Shown here piece after piece: positions 1,505-7,312 of a stretch of DNA of 7,505 nt (position 1 is the stretch's first letter; each line of letters opens with the position of its first letter). The notes under the pieces were generated by a model. The model made no database searches and was not told the origin of the DNA. It saw only the letters and a list, made by a program, of their open reading frames with translations. The translations under genes were made by a program, and so were the position numbers. Source of the DNA: Candidatus Woesearchaeota archaeon (GTDB taxonomy: Archaea; Nanobdellota; Nanobdellia; Nanobdellales; Nanobdellaceae). Where the stretch lies: NCBI GenBank assembly GCA_964468425.1, contig CAYXSZ010000069.1, positions 1-7,505 of the forward strand, written 5' to 3'.

Positions 1505-2113
1505 ATGGGTTACAACAAGAAATATGCTGAATGGAACAAGAAAGTTTGGTACGAAATAATCGCCCCTCAAGAAATATTTAACGAAGCGGTAATTGGAGAA
1601 ACTCCCGCGTACAAGCCAGAGCAGGTTATAGGAAGAACTGTAGACTTGAATTTAGCTTTCTTGACTGGAAACTTTAGGCATCAGAACATGAAAATTATTT
1701 TCCAAATTTACAAGGTCTCCAGTCTCAAGGCGTATGCAGACATCAAGGAAGTCTCCCTTTACGACGCGTACATCAGAAGAATAGTTAGAAAAGGAACTTC
1801 CAGAATAGACGACTCCTTCGAGGTAGAAACGAAGGATGGCATCAAAGTTAGAGTAAAACCTTTGGTAGTTACAAGATATAGAGCACACTACAGGCAGAAG
1901 TCGGCTATAAGAAAGGCTTACAAAGAGTTCTTACTTCAAAAAATCCCTGAATTTAACTACAAAGAACTCGTGGAGAAGGTTATTAATAAAGAAATTCAAA
2001 GCGAAATCTTTCCTGTTTTAAACAAGATCTTCCCAGTTCAGCACGTTGAAATCCGCAGACTCGTGCGAGAGACTCCTATAGTTCAATTAGAGGAGATCCA
2101 GGCTAAAACCTAA
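1505..2113 (+). CDS. rps3ae: 30S ribosomal protein S3Ae (eS1)
   Basis: The 202-aa protein contains KKVWYEIIAPQ, IGETPA, IGRTV, LTGNF, YIRRIVRKGTSRID, TKDG-x-KVRVKP, IRKAY and VEIRR. Together these match the S3Ae/eS1 family pattern along the full length. Confidence 0.95.
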   Translation: MGYNKKYAEWNKKVWYEIIAPQEIFNEAVIGETPAYKPEQVIGRTVDLNLAFLTGNFRHQNMKIIFQIYKVSSLKAYADIKEVSLYDAYIRRIVRKGTSRIDDSFEVETKDGIKVRVKPLVVTRYRAHYRQKSAIRKAYKEFLLQKIPEFNYKELVEKVINKEIQSEIFPVLNKIFPVQHVEIRRLVRETPIVQLEEIQAKT

Positions 2114-2532
2114 TGCTCTTTGTTTTTTATAAGTTAAAAGCTGAAGAAAACTTGCAGGACATCCTCAAAATTGCTAGGGAGTTGAAGCTGGACGTCGCAT
2201 TCATTCCCAGAGAATCTATGAATATCGATTACGAAAAACTCAGAAATATAAAGCATTTTGATCTTTTAGATTACGATTCCTTTTTAAAGAAGGTTGGAAG
2301 TAAAAAGATAGCCTTCATAGAAACTTGTGGAACAAGGTTCGTCCACGAGGTTGATTTATCTGAGTTTTCAGCTTTTGTCTTCGGTTCAGAAGACTATGGG
2401 ATAGATCCTTGCGACATAAAAAAAGCGAAGAACTATGAAGTCCTGAAGATCCCAATTCTTTCTGAAAGTTACAAGGTAGTTTCGAGTTTTGTGATGGTAC
2501 TAACAGAGTTAAAGCTTCAAGGTATTCTATAA
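2113..2532 (+). CDS. Small SPOUT (SpoU/TrmL-like) RNA methyltransferase, divergent
   Basis: The 139-aa layout resembles minimal TrmL/SpoU enzymes. The N-terminal block NLQDILKIARELKLDV resembles motif 1. FVFGSEDYGI matches the LvFGxExxG motif. LKIPILSESYKVVSSFVMVLTE matches the trefoil-knot IPm...SlNvs.a..i.lyE motif, with SYK in place of SLN. The start overlaps the rps3ae stop by 1 nt (TAATG at 2111-2115). Confidence 0.6.
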   Translation: MLFVFYKLKAEENLQDILKIARELKLDVAFIPRESMNIDYEKLRNIKHFDLLDYDSFLKKVGSKKIAFIETCGTRFVHEVDLSEFSAFVFGSEDYGIDPCDIKKAKNYEVLKIPILSESYKVVSSFVMVLTELKLQGIL

Positions 2533-2534
2533 AT

Positions 2535-3683
2535 ATGATCGTCAAAGCCAAGGTTTCTGAAGTGACTGAAGCCTTCCGGGATACGAAGAGCAAGCTACTC
2601 TTGCGAGTTTTGGAGGAAGGAAAACGCGTATTCGCGCTTAAACTACCAAACTTCAAGGGTCTTCTCGGCTTTAACCTTCTCCCAAATCGTAGAATCGGAA
2701 CAGAGCTTGCAGATCTTGTAAAGAGATTTGGTTTAAGGGGTATCTTGCATTCAGATGAACTTCCCGCTTATGGAATTTCGGAGTTGGAGGTAGAAAAAGT
2801 TAAGAAACTCCTTTCTTGTGAAGAGAACGATGCTTTTGTCTTGATTCTTGTTGAAAATGAAGAAAAAGCTAAAACAATTTTCAAGCACATTGTAAACCGA
2901 TTGAACGAAATGATAGAAAAAATCCCAAAGGATACGCGAAAAGCTAATGAAGATGGAACTACTTCTTTCCTCAGACCGCAACCAGGTTCTGCGAGAATGT
3001 ATCCAGAGACGGACTTGCCTCTAATTCTTGTAGATCGTAAAGAAATCGATAGAAGTTCTTATAAAGAGATCGTTTACAAAATAACTCACGGAGACAAAGT
3101 TTATGAATTGAAGTTAGCAAGATTAAAAGAAAAAAATGTAGATTTGTATCTAAAGCTTAAAGAAAACGAAGATTTGTTCGTTCTCGACTCTCTAGATCCC
3201 GAATTTCGAAGAGAAGTCCTAAAGAAACTTGGATTCAACGAAAGCCAGATTGAGAACATTCTTTGGTCGGACAACCCAGATTTGTTTGAAAAATACGCTA
3301 GAAAACTGAAGCCATCCCTCATTTATTACATCTACTTTATGCTTCCTTCCGAAGTTGAAAGCGAGTTTGGCGAAAAGGTTTATCCCGACGAAGACTTCAT
3401 AGAGCAAGCTGCTGACCTCATCTCTAAAAAATTAATCACTAGAGACGCTTTAAAAATTCTTCTTTACGAATACTCCAAAACTCGGAAGCCTCTTAAAGAG
3501 ATTATAGAAGAAAAGGGGTTGAAGAAAGTTTCTGGATCCGAGCTTGAGAATAAAATAGACGAGTTACTTAGCAAATACAAAAATTTAGAAAAGAAAAAAT
3601 TAATCAATAAAATTCTAAGCGAGCTAAGACTTATCGCCGATCCTAAAGAGATAATAGAAATTGTAAATCGTAAACTCAAATAA
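2535..3683 (+). CDS. gatE: Glu-tRNA(Gln) amidotransferase subunit E, C-terminal fragment only (insertion domain, last cradle strands, helical domain and YqeY-like tail)
   Basis: The 382-aa protein contains LKLPNFKGLLG, NRRIGTELAD, GILHSDELPAYGISE, DAFVLILVENE, TRKANEDGTTSFLRPQPGSARMYPETDLP, then a helical K/E-rich tail. These are hallmark GatE blocks from the middle to the C-terminus of the roughly 620-aa archaeal protein. The N-terminal catalytic half is absent. Confidence 0.85.
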   Translation: MIVKAKVSEVTEAFRDTKSKLLLRVLEEGKRVFALKLPNFKGLLGFNLLPNRRIGTELADLVKRFGLRGILHSDELPAYGISELEVEKVKKLLSCEENDAFVLILVENEEKAKTIFKHIVNRLNEMIEKIPKDTRKANEDGTTSFLRPQPGSARMYPETDLPLILVDRKEIDRSSYKEIVYKITHGDKVYELKLARLKEKNVDLYLKLKENEDLFVLDSLDPEFRREVLKKLGFNESQIENILWSDNPDLFEKYARKLKPSLIYYIYFMLPSEVESEFGEKVYPDEDFIEQAADLISKKLITRDALKILLYEYSKTRKPLKEIIEEKGLKKVSGSELENKIDELLSKYKNLEKKKLINKILSELRLIADPKEIIEIVNRKLK

Positions 3684-4606
3684 TGCTTTGCTCGTTTTGC
3701 AAAAATAAGGCAGTTTACAAAAGACAATCCACCTTTTACTGCAGGGAGCACTTCATTAATTATTTTTTGGAAAAAGTACGCAAAACTATACAAAATTTTT
3801 CTCTGCTTGAACCGGGAGAGACTGTTGGAGTCGGGATTTCGGGCGGAAAGGACTCCGTAAGTCTTATGCATGTTCTTTCTCAGCTAAAAGAACTTAAGCT
3901 AAATTTAATAGGAATACACATAGACGAGGGAATCAAAGGATATCGAGATGTTCTGACAAATTTTCTTGAGGAGCTTGCGAGGAAATACAAATGGAATATT
4001 AAAATTTACTCCTTTAAAGATTATTTTGGGTTCACCCTTGATGAAGCGGTTAAGTTGGTTGATGTGAAACCGTGTACAATCTGCGGTGTCTGGAGGCGCT
4101 GGATTTTTTGGAAAGCCTCCCAAGATTTAAAGCTGGACAAAGTCGCGGTAGGACATAATCTTAACGACGAAGCTCAAACTTTCATCATAAATCTCCTGGA
4201 AGGAAACTTGAAAGATCTTGCTAAAGGGGGACCAAAAGTTGGAATTGTAGAAGAATTGTTCGTTCCAAGAGTCAAACCTTTTTTCCTAGTTACCGAAAAG
4301 GAAACAACAATTTATTCTCTTCTCAACGAATTTTATCCGCCAACAAGAGAATGTCCTTACATTAGAGGACAAACTAGAGATTTTATTCGCTCTAAGCTTT
4401 ACTCCTTGGAAAACACCCATCCCGGATTTCAAGAATCTTTAATAAATGGTTACATAAATGAAATAAAAAAACTTAGAAATATTTATCAGCGAAGGATTAA
4501 GTCCGAAGTAGTCCGCTGCTCTGTTTGCGGTTATCCATCGACCAGGGAACTCTGTCGGGCGTGCGAGCTTAGGGAGATCGTAGAAAAAAATGCAGGAAAA
4601 AATTAA
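3683..4606 (+). CDS. PP-loop ATPase, tRNA 2-thiouridine synthetase of the TtuA/NcsA (Ncs6/Ctu1) family
   Basis: The protein has an N-terminal zinc finger (CSFC...C..H) and a PP-loop (SGGKDS). It has Fe-S ligand candidates CTIC plus ECPY, a GHNLNDEAQT block, and a C-terminal zinc finger (CSVC...CRAC). The start overlaps the gatE stop by 1 nt (TAATG at 3681-3685). Confidence 0.85.
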   Translation: MLCSFCKNKAVYKRQSTFYCREHFINYFLEKVRKTIQNFSLLEPGETVGVGISGGKDSVSLMHVLSQLKELKLNLIGIHIDEGIKGYRDVLTNFLEELARKYKWNIKIYSFKDYFGFTLDEAVKLVDVKPCTICGVWRRWIFWKASQDLKLDKVAVGHNLNDEAQTFIINLLEGNLKDLAKGGPKVGIVEELFVPRVKPFFLVTEKETTIYSLLNEFYPPTRECPYIRGQTRDFIRSKLYSLENTHPGFQESLINGYINEIKKLRNIYQRRIKSEVVRCSVCGYPSTRELCRACELREIVEKNAGKN

Positions 4607-5060
4607 CAAAAAAAGACTCTGGGTTTCCATTTTCCTGGCGTCTTTAGTTCTTATTTGGCTAGACTTCTTTGTGGGAAACGCTCTTAGCGAGAAGAAACCT
4701 CTTTTGCTTGGAATCTACGATGTCTCTTTTTTAGGATATTCGCTAGCCGTTTATCCCCTTCTCCTTTTATCTTTTCTAACAATTCCCATAATTCTTTATC
4801 CAGAGCGGTGGAAGCTCTGGATTTTTGTTGGATTAATGATATGGACGCTAAATGACGCCTTGTGGTTCGTAGTCCGACCTGACGAGTGGATAAAATTTTG
4901 GTTTTTCAAGGGAGAAGTAATTTTTAAGTGGTGCTTGATAAACAACGAAGTCTGCATTTACTCAACAGATTATTTAATGGCTTTCTCAATTATAACTCGT
5001 CTACTTATTGGAATATACATCTACAAGAAGTGGATTCAGGGAAGGGCGTGCTCTTCATAG
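4590..5060 (+). CDS. Hypothetical integral membrane protein, about 4 TM segments, Trp-rich
   Basis: Four hydrophobic stretches are visible: WVSIFLASLVLIWLDFFV, FLGYSLAVYPLLLLSFLTIPIILY, LWIFVGLMIWTLNDALWFVV and YLMAFSIITRLLIGIYIY. The N-terminus is positively charged. There are 10 Trp in 156 aa. It overlaps the upstream CDS by 17 nt. I recognised no family. Confidence 0.55.
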   Translation: MQEKINKKRLWVSIFLASLVLIWLDFFVGNALSEKKPLLLGIYDVSFLGYSLAVYPLLLLSFLTIPIILYPERWKLWIFVGLMIWTLNDALWFVVRPDEWIKFWFFKGEVIFKWCLINNEVCIYSTDYLMAFSIITRLLIGIYIYKKWIQGRACSS

Positions 5061-5084
5061 CTCCGCCCCGATGGATTTCATCAT
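5036..5084 (-). ncRNA. C/D box sRNA (2'-O-methylation guide), canonical archaeal architecture
   Basis: The minus strand reads ATGATGA (C, 5084-5078), aatccatcgggg (12 nt), CGGA (D', 5065-5062), gct, ATGAAGA (C', 5058-5052), gcacgcccttcc (12 nt), CTGA (D, 5039-5036). The C and D boxes are perfect, C' and D' each have one mismatch but keep the GA, and the two 12-nt spacers are symmetric and GC-rich. The core is 49 nt. Confidence 0.7.
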
Positions 5085-5090
5085 ATTTTA
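5083..5090 (+). promoter_or_regulatory. Putative TATA box (ATATTTTA) for the trm5-family gene
   Basis: The box is centred about 26 nt upstream of ATG 5112, which fits a leaderless mRNA. It abuts or overlaps the C box of the antisense-oriented sRNA. Confidence 0.4.
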
Positions 5091-5111
5091 AGCTTTGGAG
5101 CTAATTAAATA

Positions 5112-6155
5112 ATGGCTTTCGATATAATCGGAGACATCGCGATCCTAAAACCTCCTCTTAAGATGTCTGAGGAAGAGTATATCAAATATATTCAAGAAAA
5201 ACACAAATATATTCAAACAATTTTGCTCCAGGAAACGGACGTTTTACCTCCTTATCGCGTCCCTAAGTATAAAATTCTTTGGGGAGAGAACAAAACCGAG
5301 ACTGTTCATAAAGAATACGGTTTGAGGTTTAAAGTAGATGTTGTTCGAGCTTATTATTCGCCTAGGCTTGCAGAAGAGAGAAAGAGAATCGCAAGCCAAG
5401 TTAAAGATGGTGAAAAAGTTTTAGTTATGTTTGCAGGAGTCAACCCTTACTCAGTTTACATTGCAAAATATGCAAATCCTGAAATCATTTATGCTGTTGA
5501 GTTAAATCCCTTTGCTTTTAAGTATGCTTTTGAGAATGCTAAGTTAAACAAAGTTGAAAGTAAAATTACAACTATCTTGGGAGATGTGAGAAAAGTAGCA
5601 CCTTTTATTCAAGTTTTATCAAACAAGGACGCAGTTGTTCACTGCAAGCGAGATTACCTTTTAGACCTGCTCGATGCAAATCCAGAAATCAATAGGTGTT
5701 TTCTGGTAGGCTTTGACGAAGCCTACTATGATTTGGTTGAAAAAATAAGAGCTAGGAAAAAATACTTGGTTGTTTACGAGGACTTAGACTATGCGCAGTT
5801 CGATGGAGTCTTACTAAACCAAGACAACCTAGTTCTTCGAGACTACGAAGAAAATTCTCATATAGAGTTCGAAAAATTCGGCATCGAATTCGATCGGATC
5901 ATTATGCCTCTTCCAAAAGAAGCTGACACTTTCCTAGACGTCGCGATCCCATTGATAAAGGAAGGTGGAACAATCCACTTATATCAATTCTTTTTCGAAG
6001 AAGAAATTCCTGAAAAAGCTAGAGAAATTTTAGATAAATATTCGAAGCTTTTGAAATTCGAGTACGAGATTTTAAATGTTCGAAGGGTTGGAGATATAGC
6101 TCCTAGACAGTATAGAGTTTGCATAGACTTCAAAGTTACTCAAAAGCTTTTCTAA
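5112..6155 (+). CDS. trm5: Trm5/TYW2 (Met-10+ like, COG2520) family tRNA methyltransferase, lacking domain D1 and carrying an internal insertion of about 95 aa
   Basis: FDIIGDIAIL marks the D2 domain start. WGENKTETVHKEYGLRFKVDVVRAYYSPRLAEERKRIA is the family signature. VLVMFAGVNPYS is SAM motif I, IYAVELNP is motif II, ILGDVRKV is motif III, and FDRIIMPLPKEADTFLD is the motif IV region. GGTIHLYQF and APRQYRVCIDFKV follow. By recollection of M. jannaschii Trm5, ILSDVREVDVKGNRVIMNLPKFAHKFID is collinear with this protein except for residues about 164-259. Confidence 0.85.
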   Translation: MAFDIIGDIAILKPPLKMSEEEYIKYIQEKHKYIQTILLQETDVLPPYRVPKYKILWGENKTETVHKEYGLRFKVDVVRAYYSPRLAEERKRIASQVKDGEKVLVMFAGVNPYSVYIAKYANPEIIYAVELNPFAFKYAFENAKLNKVESKITTILGDVRKVAPFIQVLSNKDAVVHCKRDYLLDLLDANPEINRCFLVGFDEAYYDLVEKIRARKKYLVVYEDLDYAQFDGVLLNQDNLVLRDYEENSHIEFEKFGIEFDRIIMPLPKEADTFLDVAIPLIKEGGTIHLYQFFFEEEIPEKAREILDKYSKLLKFEYEILNVRRVGDIAPRQYRVCIDFKVTQKLF

Positions 6156-7185
6156 TCTCCCGAGCAGTTTCCTTTGGTAGAGTATAGGCTAGCTTTTCCA
6201 AGTGAAGAGTCTCCAAATACCCTTCAGCAGTCGTTCCTTGTTCTGAGGAAAACCTTGAAGCTATTCGTATTATTGGATAAACTCCAGGCTCTTTAACAAA
6301 CGTAGAGTCTATTATACTCATGTTAAATGCAATCAGATCTAAGGTATTTATATATTTGACTAAGAATTCGTACAATTCTTTAACGAAACCTTCTAAGTTG
6401 ATTTCTGCCATATTGAAGATTCCAAAGCTTTTAACAAGTCCAAGTACATCGTGATGTCCAAAGGGAGAAAAACTAGCAACCCAATCTATGAATTTCCCCG
6501 AGTAAATCACCCTATCTTTAAAGTTTAACTCGGATTGCACATAGTCTTCGACCAGCGAACTCTTAAATCGTGCAAAGTGTTCCTTAGTCTTCTCAAGCAA
6601 GATCCTATGATAGTTTGTTGGAATGGTATTTTGTTCTATTTGGAAATGTAAATGTTGCTGAGATGCTCCCGCGAGTAAAGTGTGATTCAAGTGGATGTAA
6701 ACGAATTTGGAACTTGAATCGTTTCTGTAGTTGGAGCTTACGAACTCTTTTATAAGCTTAAAAGAGATTATGAGATCGTAAACTGGGATTTCGTCTATGA
6801 ACTCCGCGTGCTTTTCAACGGTTGGTATCACTATTGCATGATATTTAGAGTACAACTTATCGGGTACGAATAAGATGGAATTCTGTCTTGATAACTTGGA
6901 TATCTTGAACCTATTGTCTATAGAGAGTCTTAAGAGTTTGTTTATGTTTTGCTTACAAAAGGGACAAGTTTTGTCGGCGCTAATCATCAAGATGTACTCA
7001 GATTTGTTAATTTTTCTCACCTTCTTGAAGGGATTTATCTTGTTCCAGAAGCCAGTAATCGGATCCTTTCGAAGTTCTAGGTATTCTGGGCGAATAGCGT
7101 CGTCCCCAGGCTCGATGCAATGATAAGGGATGATAACTCGCTCAAAGGGAAGGGAATTTTTACCATATTGGAGTTCCCTTTCCAT
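6136..7185 (-). CDS. galT: Galactose-1-phosphate uridylyltransferase-like nucleotidyltransferase (GalT branch of the HIT superfamily)
   Basis: LRKDPITGFWNKINPFKKVR corresponds to RYNPLTGxW...P.R..RP. CPFC is the zinc CxxC motif. AGASQQHLHFQI corresponds to the active-site GxSxxHxHxQ. LVEDYVQSEL corresponds to MLVDYVQREL. WVASFSPFG and the C-terminal GYLETL...LPKETAREIRKA correspond to GYEML...LTAEQAAERLRA. The protein is collinear with GalT over the full length. Confidence 0.8.
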   Translation of the reverse strand: MERELQYGKNSLPFERVIIPYHCIEPGDDAIRPEYLELRKDPITGFWNKINPFKKVRKINKSEYILMISADKTCPFCKQNINKLLRLSIDNRFKISKLSRQNSILFVPDKLYSKYHAIVIPTVEKHAEFIDEIPVYDLIISFKLIKEFVSSNYRNDSSSKFVYIHLNHTLLAGASQQHLHFQIEQNTIPTNYHRILLEKTKEHFARFKSSLVEDYVQSELNFKDRVIYSGKFIDWVASFSPFGHHDVLGLVKSFGIFNMAEINLEGFVKELYEFLVKYINTLDLIAFNMSIIDSTFVKEPGVYPIIRIASRFSSEQGTTAEGYLETLHLEKLAYTLPKETAREIRKAFE

Positions 7186-7240: not shown

Positions 7241-7312
7241 GGGCCCGTGGTCTAGCGGTAGGACGCCGGACTCGCTATCCGGAGATCCCGGGTTCGAATC
7301 CCGGCGGGTCCA
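7241..7312 (+). tRNA. tRNA-Ala (anticodon CGC), 72 nt, no encoded CCA, no intron
   Basis: Hand-folded cloverleaf: acceptor GGGCCCG/CGGGTCC with the G3:U70 alanine identity pair and A73. D arm GTCT-AGCGGTA-GGAC. Anticodon arm CCGGA-CTCGCTA-TCCGG. Variable loop AGATC. T arm CCGGG-TTCGAAT-CCCGG. The sequence after A73 is TTC, so CCA is not encoded. Confidence 0.95.

Follow-up and report, generated by a model that had tools for sequence, protein, structure and literature searches.

A C-terminal gatE gene from a hydrothermal-vent nanoarchaeon, very probably one half of a split amidotransferase subunit

The open reading frame at positions 2535-3683 of the stretch of DNA analysed here (7,505 nucleotides, henceforth referred to as 'the window') is very probably the C-terminal half of a truly split gatE gene, the product of which would be reassembled non-covalently with a separately encoded N-terminal half and GatD. 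GatE is the tRNA-binding kinase/transamidase subunit of archaeal GatDE, which converts Glu-tRNA(Gln) to Gln-tRNAGln. The two halves are separate, intact and conserved genes, and the position of the break between them is conserved to the residue. Waters and colleagues reportedly described the GatE of Nanoarchaeum equitans as split in 2003, and the split in the window is the one that earlier papers describe in N. equitans, Nst1 and N. acidilobi; the assignment is thus correct and already known, and as a discovery it is of little weight because the Nanoarchaeota have been a textbook case of split gatE since the N. equitans genome. Our analysis adds a divergent lineage from marine vents, with a different gene neighbourhood, to those broken at the identical residue, and provides a structural rationale, namely that the cut divides the catalytic domain, so that the halves must interdigitate. 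The features referred to below are:

2113-2532, + strand: upstream neighbour, a SPOUT/SpoU-type methyltransferase of 139 aa, unrelated to GatE, with a TAA stop at 2530-2532
2463-2465, + strand: in-frame TGA closing the gatE-C frame upstream, located within the SPOUT gene, which is itself read in a different frame
2535-3683, + strand: gatE C-terminal fragment gene, 382 aa plus stop, ATG start, equivalent to GatE residues ~272 to the end (M. thermautotrophicus numbering)
2535-2561, + strand: head of nine residues, MIVKAKVSE, that precedes the conserved motif VTEAF, equivalent to the 9-residue linker after RGI in unsplit P0007 and P0009
2607-2870, + strand: GAD/AspRS-like insertion domain, residues 25-112 (PF02938, E 4.7e-9; AspRS insertion-domain structural matches)
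2853-3047, + strand: orphaned end of the catalytic (cradle) domain, residues 107-171 (GatB_N model positions 233-276 of 277)
2967-3014, + strand: invariant core FLRPQPGSARMYPETD, residues 145-160, where conservation in the protein is highest
3024-3179, + strand: nanoarchaeal lineage-specific insertion of ~39 residues, for which the model confidently gives a beta-meander of three strands and a short helix
3183-3677, + strand: helical domain and YqeY-like tail (GatB_Yqey residues 287-381, nt 3393-3677)
3683-4606, + strand: downstream neighbour, an NcsA/TtuA-like PP-loop tRNA thiolase of 307 aa, the ATG of which overlaps the gatE-C stop

Both NCBIfam GatE equivalog models place the frame in the second part of the protein: NF003107 matches from model position 278 of 630 to its end (E 4.7e-78) and TIGR00134 from position 275 of 622 onward. 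The scores (263.1 bits against a whole-protein cut-off of 456 for NF003107, and 188.6 against 319.55 for TIGR00134) fall below the cut-offs, as expected of half a protein, and the HMM alignment confirms the original prediction that the C-terminal half alone is encoded here. In alignments with solved structures, residue 2-3 of the reading frame falls on position 272 in the GatE of M. thermautotrophicus (2d6f_C) and on position 282 in that of P. abyssi (1zq1_C); the ~280-290 residues estimated to be missing came close to the 271 aa of the candidate partner fragment (see below). Canonical GatE (M. thermautotrophicus 2D6F and P. abyssi 1ZQ1) shares with the window protein the domain order of cradle, nested AspRS-like/GAD insertion, cradle end, helical domain and YqeY tail, as well as the HSDELPxYGI and RMYPETD motifs, but the window chain is cut between the first part of the cradle and the insertion domain. 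The nesting of the GAD domain in the catalytic domain, which is the trait separating GatE from GatB, is present (GAD at residues 25-112, followed by GatB_N model positions 233-276). A further difference is that nanoarchaeal GatE has ~39 extra residues following MYPETD compared to canonical GatE; this insertion occurs in split and unsplit nanoarchaeal proteins and is absent from Ignicoccus and P. abyssi GatE. At the C-terminal end, PF02637 (GatB_Yqey) matches residues 287-381 with 26.9 bits, slightly below its 27-bit cut-off, and a second HMMER domain aligns residues 228-381 with residues 466-627 of P. abyssi GatE. The N-terminal cradle with its GLEIHQQL motif is absent from the reading frame and from the whole window, and was found in a separate 271-aa protein (P0126).

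The boundaries of the gene argue that it is complete as it stands. No ATG, GTG or TTG start occurs in frame between the TGA at 2463-2465 and the gatE-C ATG, the gap between the SPOUT stop and that ATG is 2 nt, and the gatE-C stop and the thiolase start overlap as TAATG (3681-3685). The sequence therefore bears out the closed upstream frame, the SPOUT gene ending 2 nt before the ATG and the tight junctions on both sides that had been noticed originally, and also the view that the gene is neither a mis-called start nor a frameshift, since the DNA upstream encodes an unrelated SPOUT protein and 59 C-fragments from many lineages have the identical start. Even though the window is a short 7.5 kb contig that is apparently metagenome-derived, it is scarcely credible that the truncation is an artefact of assembly or gene calling (through a chimeric contig, a frameshift or an incorrectly chosen start): the gene and its neighbours (S3Ae - SPOUT - gatE-C - NcsA) recur identically, with the same order and boundaries, in two metagenome contigs that were assembled independently (L001 and L002), a complete SPOUT protein is encoded where the frame is closed, tblastn with an N-fragment and with full-length GatE detected no remnant of the N-half in the window, whichever the frame (best E 0.39), and the same boundary is repeated in cultured, closed genomes.

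A different reading is that the gene is a decaying remnant, or a degenerate gatE paralog, beside a working full-length copy. Close relatives (P0007 and P0009) do possess an unsplit gatE, but we consider this reading very improbable, because the reading frame is intact, starts at one and the same position in 59 sequences as divergent as 40% identity, retains invariant motifs and is tightly packed between its neighbours. Furthermore, the C-half has been found by mass spectrometry in N. acidilobi (PMC4935971), and the published genomes of relatives report the two halves as their gatE complement (PMC3655853, PMC4935971). Two more near-identical copies of the protein were found in other sources; synonymous to nonsynonymous differences from the near-identical copies number 5:2 and 9:2 codons, counts that are too small alone to demonstrate purifying selection.

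As regards the position of the break, all 59 C-fragments examined (the window protein and 58 others, all intact and diverging down to 40% identity) start nine residues before the motif [LIV]T[ED]x[FL], and the N-fragments, which are 269-278 aa long, end with a tail after RGI that is 7 residues long in 21 of 30 and ranges from 6 to 11 residues. In the model of an unsplit relative the break site is a loop between a helix (residues 234-260) and a strand (residues 268-272), and the alignment with unsplit proteins likewise locates it at the start of the GAD/AspRS-like insertion domain, where it had been predicted to lie. The prediction that the C-fragment keeps strands of the cradle also held, as it contains GatB_N positions 233-276 compared to 2-235 in the N-fragment; in P0007, which is unsplit, residues 3-432 match the GatB_N model, and the GAD domain is nested inside at 285-375. 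Because the break precedes an insertion domain that is nested in the cradle, the N-fragment (~271 aa, from an unlinked locus) would supply ~85% of the cradle, including GLEIHQQL, and the C-fragment would supply the insertion domain, the last cradle strands (FLRPQPGSARMYPETD), the beta insertion, the helical domain and the YqeY-like tail. The cut divides the catalytic domain itself, so the halves must interdigitate: the two polypeptides would associate non-covalently, with the orphaned strands of the C-fragment completing the fold of the N-fragment, and together with GatD would constitute a three-polypeptide enzyme equivalent to GatDE. Overall, the reading of a true split gene with reassembly in trans, as originally proposed, is supported by these results, from which we infer the association of the polypeptides. 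A literature search found no biochemical proof that the halves assemble with GatD in any nanoarchaeon.

Structure models are informative about what the C-fragment could do by itself. The model of the isolated C-fragment has a mean pLDDT of 89 and a pTM of 0.54, with an entirely helical C-terminus, and residues 146-160 form the sole segment with a pLDDT below 50 (43-49). The equivalent segment in the model of unsplit P0007 (pTM 0.89) consists of beta-strands with a pLDDT of 83-96, an indirect contrast, as the two AlphaFold models were made from different alignments. The best Foldseek matches of the isolated model were 1zq1_C (E 1.3e-11) and 2d6f_D/C (E 7e-9 to 9e-9), and its TM-scores against solved GatE are low at 0.33-0.36, since the domains of the fragment modelled alone are oriented differently with respect to one another. 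Given that this model is confident save for one segment, that GAD domains and YqeY tails are autonomous folds elsewhere, and that the insertion domain of canonical GatE contains a pocket proposed as the ND-GluRS docking site (PMC2943598), the C-fragment might conceivably act alone, e.g. as a free tRNA-binding or ND-GluRS-docking module made of the GAD, helical and YqeY parts. We regard this as improbable, because the most invariant residues of the C-fragments (R147, P148, P150, G151 and R154-D160) sit in the orphaned strands of the cradle, for which no function apart from the catalytic domain is apparent, N-fragments co-occur in all lineages where they could be sought, and archaea need GatDE for Gln-tRNAGln (PMC2943598).

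If the halves function together, as we favour, they could in principle also be rejoined covalently, by protein trans-splicing (i.e. a split intein) or by joining of the RNAs, as each of these mechanisms is known to operate on other split genes in Nanoarchaeota. The DNA polymerase of N. equitans is joined by a split intein through protein trans-splicing. In the same organism, split tRNAs are trans-joined (PMC3655853 Table 1). For gatE, intein joining was rejected, since N-fragments end 6-11 residues past RGI and C-fragments start 9 residues before the next conserved motif, and extensions this short leave no room for intein halves. Joining at the RNA level was rejected as well: complementarity between the 3' flank of the N-gene and the 5' flank of the C-gene amounts to 8 nt, which is at chance level (59% of shuffles reach it). 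As each gene also has its own start and stop codon, covalent rejoining is almost certainly not how the two halves are united.

The original prediction placed the N-fragment elsewhere in the genome, and our search for it led to P0126, a 271-aa N-fragment (MKAGLEIHQQL..., GatB_N model positions 2-235) that lies on a separate contig of matching composition in a metagenome that also contains a copy of the C-fragment. The assignment was made through near-identical copies of the window in JGI 3300007771 and ENA ERZ23491583: in metagenome 3300007771, P0126 is on contig Ga0105700_1023090 and the C-fragment copy on contig Ga0105700_1026948, and neither contig contains the other half. The GC content of the P0126 contig is 0.370 compared to 0.377 for the window, and its tetranucleotide composition correlates with that of the window with r 0.959, compared to 0.71-0.90 for other nanoarchaeal contigs. 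Judged by co-occurrence and composition, P0126 is thus a candidate partner of the window C-fragment. Three other N-fragments (P0133, P0122 and P0124) were rejected as partners, as they come from other samples and have a GC content of 0.27-0.32. Both halves appear to be present in Nanobdella aerobiophila (P0136 and P0019) and in one further nanoarchaeote (P0247 and P0013). A profile search with a 'virtual fusion' N+C alignment took its seeds from N-terminal motifs alone; its ranking consisted of full-length GatE from unrelated archaea, with no nanoarchaeal loci. The host is a hydrothermal-vent nanoarchaeon with Nanopusillus/Nanopusillaceae as its nearest named kin: the best named matches of the S3Ae protein are from Candidatus Nanopusillus sp. 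(78%), Nanopusillaceae (63%) and N. acidilobi (59%), and the GatE halves fall in the nanoarchaeal clade with bootstrap values of 99-100.

Comparison with published genomes shows how closely the window matches the known split. A split amidotransferase subunit in N. equitans had been mentioned in the original prediction, and rightly so, as NEQ245/NEQ396 is the split Glu-tRNA(Gln) amidotransferase of this organism (PMC3655853, PMC4935971), listed as broken at the 'same site' as in Nst1 (Podar et al. 2013, PMC3655853 Table 1). The split gatE of Nanobsidianus stetteri Nst1 is Nst1_197/449 (PMC3655853), that of N. acidilobi, Nps_02280/03415, is again listed as 'same site' (Wurch 2016, PMC4935971 Suppl. 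Table 1), and the 'same site' is reported across marine and terrestrial Nanoarchaeota (PMC3655853). Post-translational assembly of the split halves was inferred by both Podar 2013 and Wurch 2016 (PMC3655853, PMC4935971), and in the proteome of N. acidilobi the N-half (Nps_03415), the C-half (Nps_02280) and GatD (Nps_02755) account for 0.249%, 0.166% and 0.360% of spectra, respectively (PMC4935971 Suppl. Data 1). Split gatE is absent from the discussion in a 2026 preprint on complete Nanobdellota genomes. As in the window, NEQ245/NEQ396 is one protein in two unlinked genes with presumed post-translational assembly, but N. equitans, with a GC content of 31.6% compared to 37.7% for the window, is a different organism; the residue-level match of the break to NEQ is based on the published 'same site' together with our alignment with Nst1-, Nanopusillus- and Nanobdella-type sequences. 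The C-fragments of Nst1, N. acidilobi and Nanobdella aerobiophila have the identical start with a 9-residue head and equal domain content (381-385 aa compared to 382 in the window), and the N-fragments of these three are 269-271 aa long. However, the identity between their C-fragments and that of the window is only 45-48%, and the gene context in the hot-spring lineages (TatD - TFE-alpha - gatE-C - HIT - RadA) differs from that in the window (S3Ae - SPOUT - gatE-C - NcsA).

The history of the split appears less simple than its conservation. An unsplit gatE is kept in the close relatives P0007 (GCA_964573185.1) and P0009 (GCA_053994055.1), and a P0007-type copy is also found on metagenome contig L116. 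In both relatives a single reading frame of 649-650 aa runs through a 9-residue linker at the point that carries a stop codon and a new start in the split lineages, the nanoarchaeal beta insertion is common to them and the window, and the C-terminal parts are 51% and 47% identical to the window protein, respectively, i.e. as near as most split homologues. In the phylogeny of the N-half the unsplit genes nest among split lineages, and monophyly of all split lineages is rejected by ~48-50 lnL units (RELL 0.000). Neighbour-joining trees built from the N-half, from the C-half and from both concatenated disagree in their placements, a conflict that the likelihood comparison sharpened without settling. 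As far as such trees can tell, the N-half and C-half phylogenies disagree on a single origin of the split, which is modestly new. It is possible, though in our judgement rather unlikely, that the split was not a single, irreversible ancestral event; the results would fit more than one cut at the boundary before the insertion domain, re-fusion of the halves, or independent exchange or recombination of the halves among co-occurring nanoarchaea. If the nesting of the unsplit genes is true, gatE would be a tractable case in which to ask whether splits in reduced genomes are recurrent or reversible, and whether the two halves of a split gene go on to evolve, or to be transferred, independently.

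Two further observations belong with this possibility. The gatE of P0121 (FORT17-1 scaffold_11326), a sister of unsplit P0007 (87% identical), is broken three residues off the canonical site and has an unrelated tail. On contig L101, a SpoU gene located 0.9 kb upstream of an unsplit gatE is homologous to the SPOUT gene of the window (40% identity, E 2e-27). As a weak lead, the adjacency of SPOUT and gatE-C in the window might have been left behind by an inversion through which the gene was cut. In the hot-spring lineages gatE-C has neighbours other than SPOUT (TatD-TFE-gatE-C-HIT), as it has in the P0137/P0065 lineage (GCA_054016815.1; Kae1-gatE-C-PK), which argues against such an origin; in its favour are the homology with the SpoU gene of L101 and a conserved gene upstream of gatE-N, of which an uncharacterised gene upstream of the unsplit P0009 gatE is a homologue.

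The open reading frame at 2535-3683 encodes the C-terminal half of GatE only. Both NCBIfam GatE equivalogs matched its product (the C-fragment) from well inside the model, NF003107 from position 278 of 630 (E 4.7e-78) and TIGR00134 from position 275 of 622, so that the back part and not the whole of GatE is covered, as had been predicted. A tblastn search of all frames of the window with an N-fragment and full-length GatE detected no remnant of the N-half (best E 0.39). The in-frame TGA, SPOUT stop and TAATG junction described in the original prediction are all present in the window sequence.

Features of the gatE-C gene and its product
2535-3683, plus strand: gatE-C ORF, 382 aa, ATG start
2463-2465, plus strand: upstream TGA in the gatE-C frame, read in the sequence
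2530-2532, plus strand: stop codon of the SPOUT gene, two bases ahead of the gatE-C ATG
3681-3685, plus strand: TAATG stop/start overlap of gatE-C with the downstream gene, read in the sequence
C-fragment residues 25-112, plus strand: GAD domain (Pfam)
C-fragment residues 107-171, plus strand: end of the GatB/GatE catalytic-domain model, last ~44 positions (233-276 of 277; Pfam)
C-fragment residues 287-381, plus strand: GatB_Yqey tail (Pfam)

Profile matches identify the neighbours of gatE-C as a SPOUT/SpoU-type methyltransferase (upstream) and an NcsA/TtuA-like PP-loop tRNA thiolase (downstream). In alignments to solved structures, residue 2-3 of the C-fragment corresponds to residue 272 of Methanothermobacter thermautotrophicus GatE (2d6f_C) and residue 282 of Pyrococcus abyssi GatE (1zq1_C); the earlier estimate of 280-290 missing residues was about right, the real figure being ~271. 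In the unsplit relative P0007, the Pfam catalytic-domain model extends over residues 3-432 with GAD nested inside at 285-375. The candidate partner N-fragment, P0126, carries positions 2-235 of this model and the window ORF positions 233-276, placed after GAD; the catalytic domain is therefore shared out over two polypeptides, and the C-fragment retains part of it, as expected. Nanoarchaeal GatE, split and unsplit alike, also has ~39 extra residues after MYPETD (window 3024-3179), modelled confidently as a three-stranded beta-meander and a short helix and missing from Ignicoccus and P. abyssi GatE.

More than 55 entries of a large protein collection align with the ORF over their full length; they are 381-385 aa long and belong to Nanopusillaceae, Nanobsidianus, Nanobdella aerobiophila and metagenome contigs. 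NCBI, JGI and ENA supplied four near-identical copies of the C-fragment, and two independent assemblies (L001 and L002) reproduce the gene order of the window. All 59 C-fragments examined start exactly nine residues ahead of a conserved [LIV]T[ED]x[FL] motif. When the first 265 residues of an unsplit relative served as query, they retrieved a matching set of N-fragments, 269-278 aa long and containing the catalytic domain only, which, when aligned to unsplit proteins, end where the C-fragments begin, in 21 of 30 cases seven residues past a conserved RGI. Since nine residues separate RGI from the motif in unsplit nanoarchaeal GatE, the N- and C-fragments, mapped on that chain, overlap by ~seven residues. 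The invariant start and the existence of matching N-fragments support the prediction of a true split gene. Other metagenomes contain three GatE-like proteins, 463-464 aa long (P0145, P0148 and P0201, one labelled 'GatDE subunit E [Nanoarchaeum sp.]'), that have catalytic and YqeY domains without GAD.

Split gatE is already known as a phenomenon: Podar et al. 2013 (PMC3655853) described the gene as divided in Nanoarchaeota, every other archaeon having it in one piece, and the split amidotransferase subunit mentioned for Nanoarchaeum equitans is indeed published, as a Glu-tRNAGln amidotransferase cut at the 'same site' in N. equitans (NEQ245-396) and Nst1 (Nst197-449) (PMC3655853, Table 1). Wurch et al. 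2016 (PMC4935971) give the 'same site' for N. acidilobi too, and both papers infer that the halves assemble after translation. The window is not from N. equitans, whose GC content is 31.6% compared with 0.377, and its gene context (S3Ae - SPOUT - gatE-C - NcsA) is unlike that of hot-spring lineages, TatD - TFE-alpha - gatE-C - HIT - RadA, both as published and in the loci retrieved here. The window is therefore a further case of the known split, with a residue-identical break, in a divergent vent lineage. Its nearest named S3Ae relatives are from Candidatus Nanopusillus sp. (78%), Nanopusillaceae (63%) and N. acidilobi (59%). Judging from record and sample names, the metagenomes were taken at hydrothermal vents.

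In line with the prediction that the N-half is encoded elsewhere, the candidate partner, the 271-aa P0126, lies on a separate 14.7-kb contig from JGI metagenome 3300007771, which is also the source of L002, a near-identical copy of the window. GC content is 0.370 for the P0126 contig and 0.377 for the window, and the tetranucleotide profiles of the two correlate at 0.959, as against 0.71-0.90 for other nanoarchaeal contigs. Both halves appear to lie in one genome in Nanobdella aerobiophila (P0136 and P0019) and in another nanoarchaeote (P0247 and P0013); metagenome 3300005275 supplies another pair, with the N-fragment P0122 on L009 and, on L123, a C-fragment 99.7% identical to P0005.

According to PMC2943598, archaea make Gln-tRNAGln by an indirect route, the amidation of Glu-tRNAGln by GatDE, and ND-GluRS is proposed to dock in a pocket formed by the insertion domain peculiar to GatE. 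The C-fragment contains this domain together with the helical and YqeY domains that bind tRNA, and its invariant F145-D160 (FLRPQPGSARMYPETD) is part of the catalytic domain. In an AlphaFold model of the isolated C-fragment (mean pLDDT 89.2, pTM 0.54), which resembled the two solved GatE chains most closely and then GatB and the AspRS insertion domain, residues 146-160 formed the sole segment below 50. The equivalent segment of unsplit P0007 (pTM 0.89) was modelled at 83-96 with strands at 405-410 and 417-419; in the same model, the loop that joins helix 234-260 to strand 268-272 contains the break position. We infer that the halves assemble non-covalently in trans, so that the N-fragment cradle gains its last strands from the C-fragment, where they are orphaned, and that both halves with GatD would form a three-polypeptide enzyme. 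Covalent rejoining of the halves is unlikely, as junction extensions of only 6-11 residues leave no space for split inteins, each half-gene is complete with start and stop codons, and flank complementarity is at chance (8 nt, attained by 59% of shuffles). In N. acidilobi proteomes (Wurch et al. 2016, Supplementary Data 1, PMC4935971), the N-half (Nps_03415), C-half (Nps_02280) and GatD (Nps_02755) account for 0.249%, 0.166% and 0.360% of spectra (ranks 127, 166 and 76); both gatE halves are thus real proteins in a relative of the window lineage.

In two close relatives, unsplit gatE genes encode P0007 (649 aa; GCA_964573185.1, L003 10001-11950) and P0009 (650 aa; GCA_053994055.1, L101 6001-7953), and a P0007-type copy lies on metagenome contig L116 (2-1582); Translin is downstream of both the P0007 and P0009 genes. 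Their C-parts are 51% (P0007) and 47% (P0009) identical to the window ORF, most split homologues being no closer, and the P0007 N-part is 74-87% identical to split N-fragments. Placement within the nanoarchaeal GatE clade suggests that the source organisms are nanoarchaea, in which case these would be unsplit nanoarchaeal gatE genes very near split ones.

The residue-identical C-fragment start and similar heads and tails (MIVxA..., EKI[IV]L...) favour one origin, and a single ancient split is our default reading. A neighbour-joining tree of the C-half agrees with it, both unsplit proteins being basal to a single clade that unites every split C-fragment (bootstrap 78), but neither the N-half tree nor the concatenation fits this pattern. 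We compared likelihoods of fixed topologies for 16 taxa (BLOSUM62-derived rate matrix, four gamma categories); in trees and likelihoods alike, N/C pairings were guessed for some metagenome lineages and N. equitans was not included. For the N-half, monophyly of all split lineages was rejected by 48-50 lnL units (KH s.e. ~15, RELL 0.000), the preferred tree placing the P0137/P0140 group outside and P0007 beside split P0122 (RELL 0.92). For the C-half, the main alternatives differed by about one standard error or less and a grouping of P0007 with the P0122 lineage was rejected; the concatenation favoured trees with the P0137/P0064 group outside (RELL 0.93). Differing amino-acid composition adds to these caveats, which are substantial, FYMINK being 0.34-0.38 in hot-spring and 0.27-0.32 in vent lineages. 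A split that is not unique or is reversible, through recurrent cutting, re-fusion or independent exchange of halves, seems to us improbable. One truncated 278-aa N-fragment, P0121 (L100 2238-3074; 87% identical to the P0007 N-part), diverges straight after ...KER, three residues short of the canonical site, into an unrelated Ser/Gln-rich tail of 17 residues that overlaps a convergent DUF483 gene; its contig holds no C-half remnant, and either the break is independent or the contig is chimeric.

In three split lineages, gatE-N is immediately preceded by a gene whose homologue (E 1e-38 to 1e-45) sits just ahead of the unsplit gatE of L101.

L017 7172-7975, L009 7184-7978, L012 437-1198 and L101 5137-5970: conserved uncharacterised gene, 253-277 aa, no Pfam match

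From this common upstream gene, the N-half appears to have kept the ancestral locus. The window SPOUT gene (2113-2532) shares 40% identity (E 2e-27) with a SpoU gene of L101 (4683-5108), encoded on the strand opposite to unsplit gatE and 0.9 kb upstream of it. A single inversion that broke gatE internally would yield both adjacencies and the strands observed. SPOUT is absent beside gatE-C in hot-spring lineages and in the P0065 lineage, so the idea rests on a single comparison, a weak lead to how the split may have arisen.

Six co-oriented, tightly packed genes occupy 1505-6155 (S3Ae, SPOUT, gatE-C, NcsA-like, a 156-aa ORF and Trm5-like), joined in order by an ATGA-type overlap, a 2-nt gap, the TAATG overlap, a 17-nt overlap and a 51-nt gap; of the six, at least four are tied to translation or tRNA. 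In the last, a Trm5b/Taw22-like methyltransferase (5112-6155), the Pfam domain is matched in two pieces, the first (residues 64-164) covering model positions 1-101 of 164; nt 5607-5900 after it match no family and look like a lineage-specific insertion within the domain. On the minus strand, 1-620 encodes the N-terminal part of a class I aminoacyl-tRNA synthetase (887 aa, LeuRS editing domain), whose gene exits the left window edge and is complete at L001 3-2663. The 349-aa protein at 6136-7185 (minus strand) has no Pfam match and may be a divergent HIT-superfamily nucleotidyltransferase, judging from a weak NCBIfam likeness to galactose-1-phosphate uridylyltransferase (E 4e-7, residues 149-231). 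Unlike the split and half tRNAs of N. equitans, the tRNA-Ala(CGC) gene at 7241-7312 is intact (Rfam, 66.2 bits).
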